DNA from: an archaeon | GTDB taxonomy: Archaea > Iainarchaeota > Iainarchaeia > Iainarchaeales > CSSED10-239 | Assembly (NCBI GenBank): GCA_041657425.1 | Contig: JBBABY010000012.1 | Coordinates: 9,284-35,183 of the forward strand | Direction: 5' to 3' | DNA length: 25,900 bases | Part shown: positions 16,949 to 21,402 of the stretch, piece after piece | Numbering within the stretch: position 1 is the stretch's first letter | Layout: every line of letters begins with the position of its first letter | Notes under the pieces: model-generated | Told to the model about the DNA's origin: nothing | Databases searched by the model: none | Seen by the model: the letters and a program-made list of their open reading frames with translations, nothing else | Program-made: the position numbers and the translations under genes

Positions 16949-16976
16949 TGAAGAATTTTTTTCCCTTTTTTAATTT
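16932..16976 (+). terminator. hairpin plus oligo-T after EF-2
   Basis: AATTCTT (16932-16938) pairs with AAGAATT (16951-16957) across the stop codon. It is followed by tttttttcccttttttaattt. Confidence 0.4.
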
Positions 16977-17015
16977 ATTTAATTTCTATTTCTTTGATTT
17001 TATTAAATCGCAAGA

Positions 17016-17030
17016 TTTATATATATTTTT
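17016..17030 (+). promoter_or_regulatory. candidate TATA box for ORF 17048 (leaderless-type spacing)
   Basis: tttatatatattttt is centred about 25 nt upstream of ATG 17048, and no SD is present. Confidence 0.3.
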
Positions 17031-17047
17031 ATCTTCTATAAGTAATT

Positions 17048-17380
17048 ATGAGAACAATAAAATTTTCTAGAATTAGAATTGCAAGAAATTTTAAAAATAC
17101 TAAATCAATAGGTGTAACTTTACTTATGATTTTATTTATTTTTACTATGTTTGTTTCTAAAGGTTTATATGCTCACAGATTTGAAGTAGTAACTACAAAA
17201 TCTAACGATAATTCTGGAGAAGATAGATTTGAAAAAAACAAAGTAAATACTGATAAATTTATTTATACAGATTATTCTTTAGATGATGATTCATTCGGAT
17301 TAATAGAGGATGATACAGACGTATTTGATTTATTATTACCAGATGACGATTATTATCCTGATGAAGTAAGTCCCCGGTGA
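17048..17380 (+). CDS. hypothetical small membrane-anchored or secreted protein with acidic C-terminus
   Basis: 110 aa with a basic N-terminus and one hydrophobic segment (IGVTLLMILFIFTMFVSKGLYA). The tail is Asp-rich (DDDSFGLIEDDTDVFDLLLPDDDYYPDE). No homology recognised. Confidence 0.4.
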   Translation: MRTIKFSRIRIARNFKNTKSIGVTLLMILFIFTMFVSKGLYAHRFEVVTTKSNDNSGEDRFEKNKVNTDKFIYTDYSLDDDSFGLIEDDTDVFDLLLPDDDYYPDEVSPR

Positions 17381-17408
17381 GCTACAAAAATTCAACGGTA
17401 TTTTTTTA

Positions 17409-17633
17409 GGAGCTGAAGTTTCGTCGGAAGAAACACTAACCTCCGAAGTTAGTTTAGAGACAATTCACAGATGATGTAAAAATTGGGTTGCGCCTGTCGT
17501 CGTAAGACGGGTTTCCCGAAAGGGAGACCTCGGTCGTCAGAAATGGCTTCCGGATGGAAGAAATTCCTTCGCGTAGTAGGCCCGAATCATAGTTGATTTG
17601 TTTCGCTTGCGGGTTCGAATCCCGTCAGCTCTA
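17409..17633 (+). tRNA. tRNA-Arg(CCG)-like gene carrying a 156-nt structured insertion between anticodon arm and T arm
   Basis: Acceptor GGAGCTG (17409-15) pairs with CAGCTCT (17626-32), 7 bp with G1-U72. D stem GTTT/AAAC (17418-21 / 17431-34). Perfect anticodon stem CTAAC/GTTAG (17436-40 / 17448-52) with loop CTCCGAA (U33, CCG, A37). Canonical T arm GCGGG-TTCGAAT-CCCGT (17609-25) and discriminator A. The insert 17453-17608 is GC-rich and highly self-complementary. Non-canonical features are A8, C14 and the insert itself. Confidence 0.6.
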
Positions 17634-17656
17634 CTATTATATTAATGTGGTAAAAA

Positions 17657-19051
17657 ATGAAGTTAAAGAAGAAAGCGATATCTCCAATTATTACAATTAT
17701 TTTATTAGTTGTGGTTGCAGTAGTTATAGCTGGAGTTTTATTAAGTTGGAGTACTAATTTTTTTAACAAGAATTTATCCGCAAATTCTAATAAGATTTTA
17801 ACTGAGGAAAAAACAGCAGGATATTTTTTTATTAAAGAAGCAGCAAATAACAAGATATTAATAAATAATAAAAGTCCAAAAGACATTACAATAAGAAGTT
17901 ATAAAATTATAGATAATAAATTAACAGATGCAAATTATTTAAATAGAACAATTGGATTAGAAAATTCATTATTTTTAAAAAGTGGAGATGTTGCAAGTTT
18001 AGATATTGCTTGTTTTCCATCAGATTCTTTTAAAATTAATTTAAACACTATTGAAGATAAATATATAGAATTACAAGTAAACACTTCTGATTATGATTTT
18101 GCAGATTGTCAAAGATATGATCCTGCAATAAAAATAACTAGTTGTCCAGATGGATACATTTCAGTTCCAGGAAATGCAAATTATGCAATAAGTGGCTTTT
18201 GTGTACAGCAATATGAAGCTAGAATTGATGGAATAATTTCAAATGGAGTTTGTGATGAAGGAGTAGAAGAAAATTTATCTACTGCGATTATAAGATCTAG
18301 TTATAGTTTTACTCCAAGGGCAAATATTAATTTGTGTACTGCAAAAAAGATTTGTGAAAATTCAGGAGCACATTTAATTACAAATAATGAGTGGATGACA
18401 ATTGCAAGAAATCTTGAGCAAGTTTCTGAGAATTGGACAAGTGGAACTTTAGGAAGTGGAATGATTAAAAGAGGAAATATAGGATATATTTATGATGGTG
18501 GGAATTTTACGATTCCAGAAGGCGGGTATACTAAAGATAATGATAGATTATATGGTGGAGCTGTAGACTTTGGTGATGGTAGAGATGAATTGGCAAGATT
18601 AACACTTTCAAATGGAGAGTATATTTGGGATTTTTCAGGTAATCTTGCGGAATGGGTTGATTTAACAATAATTGAAAGTTGTGATGGAACTTGTGTATTA
18701 GGTAGTGATGATATGGGAATTCAACATGGTTCTCCTGGTTTTGATGCACTCGTAGATATGAATTGGTATGAGTTTACTGAATTAACAAGGTCTGGATCTT
18801 TAACATATCCTGATATTAAACCTTATAACGATTATGATTCTATAAACGGGGTTGGGAAGATTTTTATTTCTCCTGGACATTCAAATGATATAGTAGATCG
18901 TTATATGGAAAATAACGTTCATGCAGTTGTAAGAGGAGGAAACTATTCTGATGATTATGCTGCAGGAGTATTTGCTATGAATTTTATGTGGGCTCCAAAT
19001 TATTATAGTGATAAAACTGGATTTAGATGTGCAATTACTTTAGAAGAATAA
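17657..19051 (+). CDS. archaeal type IV pilin-signal (class III signal peptide) protein with C-terminal FGE-sulfatase / C-type-lectin-fold domain
   Basis: The N-terminus MKLKKKAISPIITIILLVVVAVVIAGVLLSW matches the archaeal Pilin_N (DUF1628-type) pattern K-A|ISPII plus a hydrophobic helix. The C-terminal half carries FGE/SUMF1-family landmarks: A..C...GAHLITNNEWMTIAR, GNLAEWVD, VVRGGNYSDD and GFRCA near the end. GTGG (17647-17650) lies 6 nt before the ATG. Confidence 0.75.
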   Translation: MKLKKKAISPIITIILLVVVAVVIAGVLLSWSTNFFNKNLSANSNKILTEEKTAGYFFIKEAANNKILINNKSPKDITIRSYKIIDNKLTDANYLNRTIGLENSLFLKSGDVASLDIACFPSDSFKINLNTIEDKYIELQVNTSDYDFADCQRYDPAIKITSCPDGYISVPGNANYAISGFCVQQYEARIDGIISNGVCDEGVEENLSTAIIRSSYSFTPRANINLCTAKKICENSGAHLITNNEWMTIARNLEQVSENWTSGTLGSGMIKRGNIGYIYDGGNFTIPEGGYTKDNDRLYGGAVDFGDGRDELARLTLSNGEYIWDFSGNLAEWVDLTIIESCDGTCVLGSDDMGIQHGSPGFDALVDMNWYEFTELTRSGSLTYPDIKPYNDYDSINGVGKIFISPGHSNDIVDRYMENNVHAVVRGGNYSDDYAAGVFAMNFMWAPNYYSDKTGFRCAITLEE

Positions 19052-19293
19052 TTTGAAAAAAACTAATTTACTATTTTATTACTAATTGTGGGACACAACT
19101 TTTTTCTTGGACAATCCTTATTTTAGTTGTCTGTAATAAAAGATAAATTCTAGTTTCTCAGAAAACATTTAATATAAAATATTTATTTTATTGTATAAAT
19201 TATTGGACAATCAACAATAATAAGCTTTATATACCTTTCATATATAGATATAGATACTTTTTAATATTACATTAAAAAAGGGGGGAAAGAAAC

Positions 19294-19466: not shown

Positions 19467-20618
19467 ATGATAACTAAGATTCTAGTTTTAGGAAGTCAAA
19501 GAAAAAAATCACAAGATATCATATCCTTTTTTTCTAAATATCCTAATAAATATAAAATTTCTGGATTAATGTGTACTGATGAAAAACAACTTGATTTTTT
19601 CAAGCAACAAATAAAGAAATTAAAACCAGAAGTGGTTTTCTTTCCAAATAAAGAACAGGCTCAGCAAATCGCTGAAGATTTTAATATTAAGTGTTTTTCT
19701 GATAATTTACAATATACTCAATTCTTGAAAATAAGTAATTGTGATTTAGTGGTTTCTGATCTTACAGGTATAGATTCCATAAAGTTAATTTTAGCAACAG
19801 TTGGAGAGTATAAAGATATTTGCTTATTAAATTTAGAACCAATATTGTATTCAGGAAAAATAATAATAAATGAAGCAAAGAATAAAGGCGTAAAGTTACA
19901 ATTTATTACTCATCAATTTTATTCATTTGATTTATTCTTTAAATATAAGAATAATTTAACAAATATAAATAAGGTTATACTTACAAATTATGATAGTATA
20001 TATGATAAAGAGAATTTAGAAAACTATGCTTCTTCAAGTAAAAGTTTATCAGAATTTAAAAAGATTTTATATTTTAAAAACAAAATGTGGTTAGGAAGAC
20101 ATTTGATAGTTCTAAGTAACGTTTATGATTTAGAATCAAATACTTTTGAATATTATAAATCAAATACAGATTCTTTAAGTTTAATTTTACAATTAAAGAC
20201 TGGAAGTAATTATTTTAATCTCACTGATAATAATAAAGAAGTAATTTATAATTATTATTATTTAAATAGTCAAAATACAGATATTAAATTAAATTTAGAA
20301 AAAAATATAGATATAAAGTTACAGAAAATAAAAGCTGAAGATATAATTTCTTTAGATTTAGCAAATCAAGCACTTAAGAAAGGGGGATCGTATCCTATAA
20401 TTTATCAAATGGCTTATGATCTATGTGCAGAAGGAATGTATCTGAATAAAATTAAAAACAAAAATTGTTTTATGAAAGTATTTACAGAAATGCTTGAAGA
20501 TAAAACCTTCTATTCTAAAAACGCAAATATTCAAACAATATTTGCACTATATGAAAGAGTAAAAGAAAAGATCAATGCAGATTTTATAAAAACAAAGAAA
20601 ACAGAATCTAAAAAATAG
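19467..20618 (+). CDS. 1-deoxy-D-xylulose-5-phosphate reductoisomerase (DXR)-fold homologue with degenerate cofactor and catalytic motifs
   Basis: 383 aa, alignable by eye to bacterial Dxr along its whole length. [16 protein letters not shown] aligns with LTILGSTGSIGxxTLDVV. [33 protein letters not shown] aligns with [46 protein letters not shown] aligns with [49 protein letters not shown] aligns with [35 protein letters not shown]. Confidence 0.65.
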   Translation: [383 protein letters not shown]

Positions 20619-21402
20619 CTTCTTCTAATTTTTCTGTAAGTATAATTTGAGAATTACTTTTTTGTTTTGCTTGTTCCAAAATAAGTTTTAGTTTTTGTTT
20701 ATCAAAAATCTCTTTTAAAGCATAATCTGGAATGATGTGGCCAAAACAATATTTTTCTTCTTTATTGAAAGTAAATCTATTGAATTTGGTGCAATAATGA
20801 GAACCCCCAATACCAACAGTTTCTATCCATCCATTTTCGTTTTTTATTTTTTCTTTATCATAGTTTTTAATTACTTTAATTAAGCAATCAACAACAAATC
20901 TAGACACAACAGGATCATTCCAAGCATTCTCTTCAGAACCGATTTCAACAAAGATTGTTGGTTTTTTTAAAAAAGGGCCATGATGAGTGGCTTCTTGCTT
21001 TATTTCATAGGCTATTGATTTAGGTTTATTATCATAAAGTTCAAGAAGAAGAGATCTAATAAGGATTGGATCAGTTTCAACTACTGTTTCATCAACACCA
21101 CCTAGTTCTGCTTTTCCCCAGTTTCCAATGGCGTGAACAGTAATAGAATGTGGTTTAGTTTCAGAAAGTGTCGAATGTTTAGAAAGAAAAATTATATAAT
21201 CTATCTCCTTATAGTTAGAAACTATTGAATAAAGATTTTTCTCTAAAATAAATATGTGCATTTCATCAATTTTACAAAGAAAAATAGAATTGTTTCCGTC
21301 TATAACCAATTGATTATCCTTAATTTCATAGTTATTAGTAAATGTATTGTAAAAGTTAATACTAGCAGGATCTTTTTCAGAAAACACAAGTAAGAAATTC
21401 AT
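20608..21402 (-). CDS. dtdA: archaeal-type D-aminoacyl-tRNA deacylase (DTD2)
   Basis: 264 aa with DTD2 family blocks HAIGNWGKAELGGVDETVV, EATHHGP, FVEIGSEENAWNDP, VGIGGSHYCTKF and FGHIIPDYA. Its 3' end overlaps the convergent DXR-like gene by 11 nt. Confidence 0.88.
   Translation of the reverse strand: MNFLLVFSEKDPASINFYNTFTNNYEIKDNQLVIDGNNSIFLCKIDEMHIFILEKNLYSIVSNYKEIDYIIFLSKHSTLSETKPHSITVHAIGNWGKAELGGVDETVVETDPILIRSLLLELYDNKPKSIAYEIKQEATHHGPFLKKPTIFVEIGSEENAWNDPVVSRFVVDCLIKVIKNYDKEKIKNENGWIETVGIGGSHYCTKFNRFTFNKEEKYCFGHIIPDYALKEIFDKQKLKLILEQAKQKSNSQIILTEKLEEAIF

Follow-up and report, generated by a model that had tools for sequence, protein, structure and literature searches.

A 25,900-nt stretch of an archaeal contig (JBBABY010000012.1, positions 9,284 to 35,183; assembly GCA_041657425.1), referred to here in its full length as the window, carries at 17409–17633 on the + strand a complete tRNA cloverleaf that is interrupted in its variable region by a structured insert. 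The element is real and conserved, no known family explains it, and it belongs among the disrupted archaeal tRNA genes. The reading ranked first, which we hold tentatively and with somewhat less than even confidence, is that of a tRNA-Arg(CCG) gene with a long non-canonical intron in its variable loop, which would be clamped by a closing helix (P1) and cut by a DPANN splicing endonuclease of relaxed specificity. An intron is ranked above a permanent expansion of the tRNA, and both are ranked above a tRNA-like end attached to another RNA.

The interrupted tRNA gene

The exons and the insert of the window copy are composed of the following parts, all on the + strand and given in RNA letters:

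17409–17453: 5′ tRNA part, with the acceptor 5′ strand, A8 and A9, the D arm, the anticodon arm and U44
17409–15 and 17626–32: acceptor stem, GGAGCUG / CAGCUCU, with G1.U72
17418–34: D arm, GUUUC-GUCGGAA-GAAAC, 5 bp possible with C14-G21; G18G19 and A20 present
17436–52: anticodon arm, CUAAC-CUCCGAA-GUUAG, with the anticodon CCG (Arg) at 17443–45
17453–17456: 5′ linker, UUUA, invariant in 6/6 aligned sequences; variable-loop segment or candidate 5′ splice region
17457–17467: 5′ strand of P1, GAGACAATTCA (GAGACAAUUCA), the helix that closes the insert; partner 17594–17604, with one U.U
17468–17475: (C)AG loop purines and 5′ strand of the helix P2, AUGAU (17471–75); AGAUGAUGU invariant in all copies
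17476–17585: variable interior, a multi-branch domain with 3–4 hairpins, including GGUUUCCC-GAAA-GGGAGACC at 17510–29
17586–17593: 3′ strand of P2, AUCAU (17586–90), and loop AGU; AUCAU invariant, loop GG in relatives
17594–17604: 3′ strand of P1, TGATTTGTTTC (UGAUUUGUUUC), pairing with 17457–17467
17605–17608: 3′ linker, GCUU (G-Y-U-U in all copies), adjoining the T stem; variable-loop segment or candidate 3′ splice region
17609–17633: 3′ tRNA part, with the T arm GCGGG-UUCGAAU-CCCGU (17609–25), the acceptor 3′ strand and the discriminator A73 (17633)

Within the exons, U33, A37/A38, G18G19, A20, the T-loop UUCRAAU (R57 being G or A, depending on the copy) and G53-C61 are all present; A20 and C35/G36 are known as arginine identity elements. 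CCA is not encoded after A73. Outside the variable region the spacing of the tRNA arms is standard. Exactly 156 nt separate the anticodon stem from the T stem in the window copy, the figure given in the original prediction, which was made from the letters of the window, and across copies this gap ranges from 154 to 170 nt. Deletion of the insert in silico yields a valid tRNA: ARAGORN called tRNA-Arg(CCG), with scores of 105–114, in 4/4 copies tested and for all spliced versions. With the insert in place, the Rfam tRNA model RF00005 matched the homologous copy L004 over positions 1–71 at 28.1 bits (gathering score 29; E = 6e-4), treating the insert as one long insertion. In the window itself, ARAGORN and an Rfam scan at gathering thresholds reported only a tRNA-Glu at 2742–2818 and missed the element at 17409–17633, as is to be expected with an insertion of 156 nt. 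Since the element is invisible to ARAGORN and falls just below the Rfam threshold, similar disrupted tRNA genes have probably been missed in the annotation of DPANN genomes.

Homologues and covariation

Homologues were sought through the two proteins encoded on either side of the element, and every cluster in the protein database was recovered. The search yielded five further distinct homologues and one near-identical variant, all within one narrow clade:

L004, 12673–12901 (also L026 and L146)
L147, 4325–4563
L021, 560–785
L149, 534–759, near-identical to L021
L022, 1–204, 5′ end cut
L148, 5′ part only (L148:1588–1649)

Six usable sequences, five distinct and one near-identical, were aligned (alignment A4), and a structure of 40 pairs, comprising the four tRNA helices, P1 and P2, was tested on them. 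Standard pairs filled 98.2% of the cells, as against 36–54% when the partners were slid by 1–3 columns, and the four tRNA helices were 100% paired. Six pairs had changed on both sides, two of them in the anticodon stem and four in P1; none of 500 shuffles equalled the alignment in pairing, in its count of doubly changed pairs or in covariation score. The tRNA exons are nearly invariant in this alignment save for the anticodon stem, where CUAAC/GUUAG is replaced by CUGGU/GCCAG around a fixed loop, CUCCGAA. Coming from six related sequences, the support from covariation appears modest but clear. The original prediction had proposed that the gene resembles one for tRNA-Arg(CCG) and carries a structured module where its variable loop should be, and had named covariation among homologues as a check; the proposal is supported by relatives with all arms, P1, P2 and compensatory changes.

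An assembly artefact is unlikely, given that the element is conserved in five related lineages. Positions 17369–17660 are identical base for base in the assemblies L151 (ENA) and L152 (NCBI GCA_041678985.1), which may share read sets. The copy closest to that of the window is L148, which has the same anticodon stem and a small upstream open reading frame (ORF) that is 83% identical. Its 5′ strand of P1 contains GCAGGUA, compared with GAGACAA in the window, and its contig ends before the 3′ strand. To judge from these sequences, the turnover of P1 seems to be very fast.

Other searches added little to this set. Scans of viral contigs with the D arm and the insert ends gave no matches. A scan of metagenome DNA with the 3′ half GCGGGTTCRAATCCCGTCAGCTC, which is common to bacterial tRNA-Asp genes, was swamped by these genes and returned, among the matches listed, only the L004 contig again. 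Weak BLAST matches at L010:20354 and L016:5652 were rejected as AT-rich coding sequence. The retrieved sequences contain no intron-less copy with a decaying insert, for which no dedicated search was made across Iainarchaeota.

Architecture of the insert

The insert is organized by two helices and the purines between them. P1, with 11–13 bp in every homologue, differs in sequence between copies yet pairs in each. P2 is an invariant 5-bp helix, AUGAU/AUCAU, set within AGAUGAUGU ... AUCAURGUU. Between P1 and P2 lies a purine loop, in which AG stands opposite GG (2x2) in the relatives and CAG opposite AGU in the window. The unconstrained minimum free energy (MFE) fold of 17409–17633 consists of the cloverleaf and a self-contained insert domain, at −84.9 kcal/mol compared with −63.6 ± 4.6 kcal/mol for dinucleotide shuffles (z = −4.59; 0/200 as good). 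The same type of fold is the MFE structure in four full-length copies, and the 5′-truncated L022 is alike over the part present; z-scores are −4.6, −4.5 and −5.7 for full-length copies and −2.4 for the truncated L022. L147 was seen only in an alignment fold with L004.

Inside P2, the sequence changes rapidly. The interior cannot be aligned between three subgroups, namely the window, L004/L147 and L021/L149/L022, and its length is kept at 114–130 nt from P2 to P2. Each separately folded copy forms 3–4 hairpins closed by P2. Between L004 and L147 the hairpins are kept by way of three compensatory pairs, for example CUCUUUGCAA/UUGUAGGGAG replaced by CUUCUUGCAC/GUGUAGGAAG, and between L021/L149 and L022 by way of six. 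Overall, the interior changes at about the rate of intergenic DNA free of constraint, in contrast to the ends and the closing helix, which are kept.

Much of what had been described from the window sequence alone withstood this comparison, although not all of it extends to the family. The helix and arm coordinates, including those of TGCGC/GCGTA and the GNRA hairpin at 17510–29, all match the sequence, and the statement that the insert folds well agrees with the shuffle test. The inner helices of the window copy, in turn, are not kept in relatives and cannot be taken as a family feature. The 3x3 CAG/AGU loop with its potential tandem G-A pairs exists in the window; in relatives it gives way to the 2x2 AG/GG loop, and the G-A pairs are unconserved. 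Likewise, the insert had been called GC-rich relative to its flanks. This holds for the window, where the intergenic stretch with the element has a GC content of 0.43, against 0.12–0.31 in all other intergenic stretches, and is the sole GC-rich intergenic region. It does not hold for the family, since the GC content of the interior is 0.36–0.51 across copies and GC-richness is thus no family trait.

Several identities for the insert were tried and rejected. No second copy of the interior occurs in any retrieved sequence, and on this ground a repeated or mobile sequence was dismissed. Nor does the interior look like an antisense or guide RNA aimed at the adjacent genes: its complementarity to them is no greater than chance, with longest runs of 8 nt, below the shuffle means of 8.4–9.9. 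An Rfam scan of four copies, a check that had also been put forward at the outset, found no family that explains the insert, and comparison of four copies with intron classes gave no group I/II or small ribozyme match at E up to 5–10.

Excision or retention of the insert

If the insert is an intron, an intervening sequence of ~150 nt would lie roughly between nt 44/45 and nt 45–48 of the tRNA, at about 17454–17604 in the window. The tRNA gene would be transcribed with its neighbours or alone, the insert would fold by itself into a compact multi-hairpin domain, and the covarying P1 (11–13 bp) would clamp both exon ends, so that the cloverleaf forms around the insert. The insert would subsequently be cut out and the halves joined, likely by a relaxed-specificity DPANN splicing endonuclease and an RtcB-type ligase, to give a product with a variable loop of 5 nt, most plausibly U-G-Y-U-U. 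The excised RNA would probably be stable and structured, possibly circular, and the invariant P2 / AG-GG module may act as a recognition site for a protein or processing enzyme.

Archaeal introns show the same combination, in which the interior evolves fast and the closing helix and junctions are conserved. Moreover, a tRNA that decodes would need the insert removed, as there is unlikely to be space in the ribosome for a variable-region domain of 150 nt. The wider lineage is known for disrupted tRNA genes and for endonucleases of broadened specificity (PMC5829648, PMC4033280, PMC12397907). Splicing endonucleases with extra loops have been tied to many disrupted tRNA genes in DPANN archaea, for which standard prediction often fails to recover a full tRNA set (PMC5829648, PMC4033280), and an EndA with an L3 loop has been reported across DPANN (PMC5829648). 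No EndA or RtcB gene is encoded in the window or the retrieved loci.

A number of observations weigh against excision, foremost the want of a convincing splice motif. Three scans for bulge-helix-bulge (BHB) motifs were performed, one for any motif, one for motifs in a register common to the copies, and one for splice pairs giving a variable loop of 3–6 nt. In these exhaustive scans, the canonical 3-4-3 BHB with a variable loop of 4–5 nt was absent in every copy, in agreement with the earlier remark that none was visible by eye, and the junctions lack a clean relaxed HBh′ or BHL form; they may be a relaxed substrate for the DPANN enzyme. The last of these scans gave only 2–3/4 weak central pairs without an outer helix, with a different register in L004. 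The best consistent candidate, [G43 U U]-UANN-P1 ... P1-[YUG]-UUUG, has 3/4 weak central pairs and likewise lacks the outer helix. The variable loop left by it would be U-G-Y-U-U in four copies and 6 nt long in L004. This candidate competes with better pairs in P1, the anticodon stem and the T stem, and stands at about chance level for AU-rich sequence. A BHB centred on P2, with P1 as its long arm, was rejected, the loop being 2x2 instead of staggered bulges and the helix 5 bp in length.

The tRNA body and the insert raise further points of this kind. The core is unusual, with A8 for U8, C14 for A14 (both of these recognized from the start), G21 for A21, and G1.U72, the last of these in every copy; because C14 and G21 replace A14 and A21, a fifth D-stem pair, C14-G21, is possible. 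The remainder of the tRNA body is canonical. Simple excision requires neither a length held within 154–170 nt nor an invariant P2 with its flanking purines, and on sequence grounds the invariance of P2 and the held length suggest contact with a protein or enzyme, or a function of the insert itself. In addition, CGG, the only Watson-Crick codon of the anticodon CCG, accounts for 3/7457 codons in the window and for 0–3 per 1159–7286 codons in relatives; with a codon so nearly absent, there is little need for this tRNA.

These same features lend some weight to a second, more doubtful possibility, that the insert is a permanent expansion domain. The unspliced, tRNA-shaped RNA of ~225–240 nt would then present a P1–P2 stalk with a fast-evolving multi-hairpin head, and its role would be non-decoding, such as that of a protein scaffold or decoy, or else the specialised reading of the rare CGG codon. 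Retention would accord with the failure to find a splice motif, with a domain size that is constant despite unalignable sequence, with interior hairpins kept by compensatory changes, and with a P2 and AG/GG loop as invariant as a binding site would be. The non-canonical core (A8, C14-G21, G1.U72) points the same way, as do a decoding role made almost dispensable by the near-disuse of CGG and the location of the gene in an accessory cassette, described below, that is missing from close relatives. However, the anticodon loop, the covarying anticodon stem, the T-loop, G18G19/A20 in the D-loop and the acceptor stem are all preserved in the manner of a functional tRNA, and the single-stranded linkers of 4–6 nt that flank P1 are looser than those of class II arms. 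No variable arm near this size is generally known for any tRNA (class II tRNAs and nev-tRNAs are reviewed in PMC4033280).

An intron at this site would be among the longest archaeal tRNA introns, placed in the variable loop and devoid of the motif by which archaeal splicing substrates are defined. Such an intron would offer a natural test substrate for the relaxed specificity of DPANN splicing endonucleases and would help to explain the incomplete tRNA sets returned by standard tools. A retained insert, on the other hand, would break the assumed size limits of tRNA variable arms.

The cassette and codon usage

The tRNA-like gene is the middle member of a cassette of ~2.25 kb (16949–19200), which also contains the 110-aa ORF and the 464-aa pilin-like gene. 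Its other parts are as follows:

17048–17380, + strand: small ORF of 110 aa, acidic and membrane-anchored; opens the cassette and in every case immediately precedes the tRNA-like gene
17369–17383, + strand: invariant block AGTCCCCGGTGAGCT, 26–40 nt upstream of the tRNA 5′ end; AGT CCC CGG, stop and 3 nt
17657–19051, + strand: type IV pilin-like protein, 464 aa, C-terminal region related to FGE-sulfatase (SUMF1); always directly downstream of the tRNA-like gene

As stated beforehand, the pilin-like ORF of the window starts 23 nt after A73. In most relatives, the gene for EF-2 is directly followed by a DXP-reductoisomerase-like (dxr-like) gene, and in the window and a few relatives the cassette lies between the two. 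It is found there in the window, L004, L147 and, as far as the contig extends, L146; it is absent from this place in the close relatives L002, L003, L016 and L017, and apparently in L001, for which ~800 nt downstream of EF-2 were seen. Relatives without the cassette have an unrelated spacer, which measures ~340 nt in L002.

The pilin-like protein begins with an archaeal class III signal peptide / Pilin_N sequence. Its C-terminal two thirds are 30–40% identical to proteins of Patescibacteria (the candidate phyla radiation, CPR) with a prepilin N-terminus (PF07963) and an FGE-sulfatase/SUMF1 domain, and it seems from this similarity to carry a surface domain common to episymbiotic archaea and bacteria. 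No tRNA was found upstream of the Forterrea pilin homologue P0006, the only more distant homologue looked at.

The block AGTCCCCGGTGAGCT is invariant in the window, L004:12630–12644, L021:512–526, L147 and L149, and has one change in L148; the small ORF around it is only ~31–35% identical in protein sequence. The block encodes Ser-Pro-Arg-stop. As these genomes make almost no use of CCC or CGG, the constraint on the block is not that of ordinary coding. The CGG at the end of the ORF is thus the codon of the very tRNA-Arg(CCG) encoded 26 nt downstream. Membership of the block in the element is uncertain, and no RNA pairing partner for it was consistent across copies.

A fuller version of retention joins these observations into one proposal, according to which the insert is never removed and a ~230-nt tRNA-Arg(CCG)-shaped RNA with a giant variable arm, encoded in an accessory cassette ahead of the pilin-like gene, would read the CCC-CGG end of the upstream ORF. 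Although unlikely in our view, it would define a novel RNA class, be it an expanded tRNA or a tRNA-scaffolded RNA, in which a rare codon is inherently tied to the RNA that decodes it.

Co-transcription of the three cassette genes is plausible from the sequence, because the gaps leave too little space for a canonical promoter of each gene and a Shine-Dalgarno-like GGUG/GGAG precedes the pilin-like gene. Another idea, which we consider improbable, is that the tRNA-like structure serves mainly as a processing or regulatory element between the cistrons of one transcript, which would span all three genes from the small ORF to the pilin-like gene. Cuts by RNase P and RNase Z at the ends of the structure would separate or stabilise the two mRNAs, and the CCC-CGG-stop sequence would couple translation of the upstream ORF to the supply of the CGG-reading tRNA 26 nt downstream. 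The gene order is indeed identical in every copy that extends far enough, and the distances of 26–30 nt from the small ORF to the tRNA and 23–55 nt from the tRNA to the pilin start leave no room for a separate promoter. The Shine-Dalgarno-like motif fits as well, and AGTCCCCGGTGAGCT is invariant even at synonymous sites, across two codons that are otherwise nearly absent. However, this idea leaves the 150-nt insert unexplained, the block lacks a consistent pairing partner, and T-runs right after the tRNA in several copies are potential terminators. Co-transcription of tRNAs and mRNAs is, besides, common and needs no special function, and the proposal is compatible with either an intron or retention, hence not a full alternative to them.

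Least of all can the locus be taken for a decaying, functionless tRNA pseudogene into which something like a small mobile element with inverted ends has inserted, a reading that is very unlikely and largely excluded by covariation: the ends of the insert do form an inverted repeat (P1), only some of the close relatives possess the cassette, and the tRNA core deviates at positions 8 and 14, but the exons are 95–100% identical across lineages whose flanking intergenic DNA is unalignable, compensatory changes occur in the anticodon stem and P1, the inverted ends covary, unlike the constant ends bound by a transposase, the retrieved sequences hold no second interior copy, and every folded copy folds cleanly.

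Comparison with known systems

At 150–165 nt, the insert is well above the typical length of a tRNA intron. Archaeal non-canonical tRNA introns, which have a BHB outside 37/38 and are known from Thermoproteales, ARMAN and other DPANN archaea, resemble it in being intervening sequences away from the anticodon, with a fast interior and a helix beside the junctions, and disrupted tRNA genes together with endonucleases of relaxed specificity are likewise a known trait of the lineage (PMC5829648, PMC4033280, PMC12397907). Unlike these BHB introns, the element has no recognisable 3-4-3 motif and possesses an invariant P2 / AG-GG module and a held size.

The tRNA-Trp intron of Euryarchaeota, which houses a C/D box guide RNA, is another long (~100 nt) tRNA intron that is a functional RNA, and the AUGAUGU of the insert resembles a C box. 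In contrast to that intron, the C-like box of the insert is locked in the Watson-Crick helix P2, the position is the variable loop and not 37/38, K-turn geometry is absent, and the interior, far from being an open guide, is heavily structured. A C/D box or K-turn reading of AGAUGAUGU ... UUGA was therefore rejected: the D position (UUGA/UUAA/UUGU) is unconserved and the geometry is wrong, 5–8 nt would have to be bulged instead of 3, tandem G.A pairs are not in the right strands of the insert, and no Rfam C/D family was significant.

Split tRNA genes, as in Nanoarchaeum equitans and Caldivirga, join their halves through a long helix of 12–14 bp beside the junction, much as P1 (11–13 bp) would do. 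In the element, by contrast, the halves and the connector are on one transcript, P1 is AU-rich and not GC-rich, and there is no BHB between P1 and the tRNA body. Class II tRNAs (Leu, Ser, Tyr and Sec) and nematode nev-tRNAs also carry extra arms at this position. Their arms are short hairpins of up to ~20-odd nt, and a class II arm is defined as a single hairpin of ~10–24 nt, whereas the element has a multi-branched 150-nt domain (154–170 nt from stem to stem) in an Arg(CCG) tRNA, with linkers of 4–6 nt on each side.

Transfer-messenger RNA (tmRNA) and tRNA-like domains fused to larger RNAs similarly combine an acceptor and T arm with a large extra domain, and an Rfam tmRNA match over the T arm and acceptor was weak and partial (14.6 bits; gathering score 47). 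Unlike tmRNA, the element possesses full D and anticodon arms, the anticodon loop being normal, and it has neither a tag reading frame nor pseudoknots; tmRNA is not known from archaea. Finally, hammerhead, twister, hairpin and other ribozymes, group I/II introns and riboswitches were rejected for want of Rfam support. The nucleotides conserved in all insert copies are those of P2 and its flanks only, too few for any known ribozyme or intron core, and a match to c-di-GMP-I-UAU was at chance level (19 bits; gathering score 66).

Host and genomic surroundings

The host is an AT-rich DPANN archaeon related to Iainarchaeota, with a genome of 29% GC. The window encodes a split RpoB, RpoA′/A′′, EF-2 and the archaeal pilin-like protein. 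Its EF-2 is 91–94% identical to that of uncultured archaeal metagenome-assembled genomes (MAGs) and 60–85% identical to that of MAGs named Candidatus Iainarchaeum, ainarchaeum and Forterrea, which places the host in DPANN, among Iainarchaeota.

tRNA genes are scarce in the sequences at hand. Extension of the source contig by 10 kb brought no further tRNA genes for comparison. Across 19 EF-2 loci (L001–L019), which represent mostly one syntenic neighbourhood, ARAGORN found three tRNA genes only, and our own arm-based tRNA scan added one gene, in L023–L025; together, L001–L025 comprise ~350 kb of Iainarchaeota relatives. This low count fits the published reports of incomplete DPANN tRNA predictions.

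Two minor observations concern other tRNA-related sequences. At 20608–21402 on the − strand of the window, 1.5 kb downstream of the cassette, lies a gene for a tRNA deacylase (PF04414), according to the annotation of the identical contig; its proximity to the cassette is probably a coincidence. On an unrelated metagenome contig (L088:560–652), the anticodon region of a tRNA is split by a hairpin-forming insert of ~35 nt (GCTTCTTTC...GAAAGAAGC), which looks like an ordinary intron-containing tRNA.

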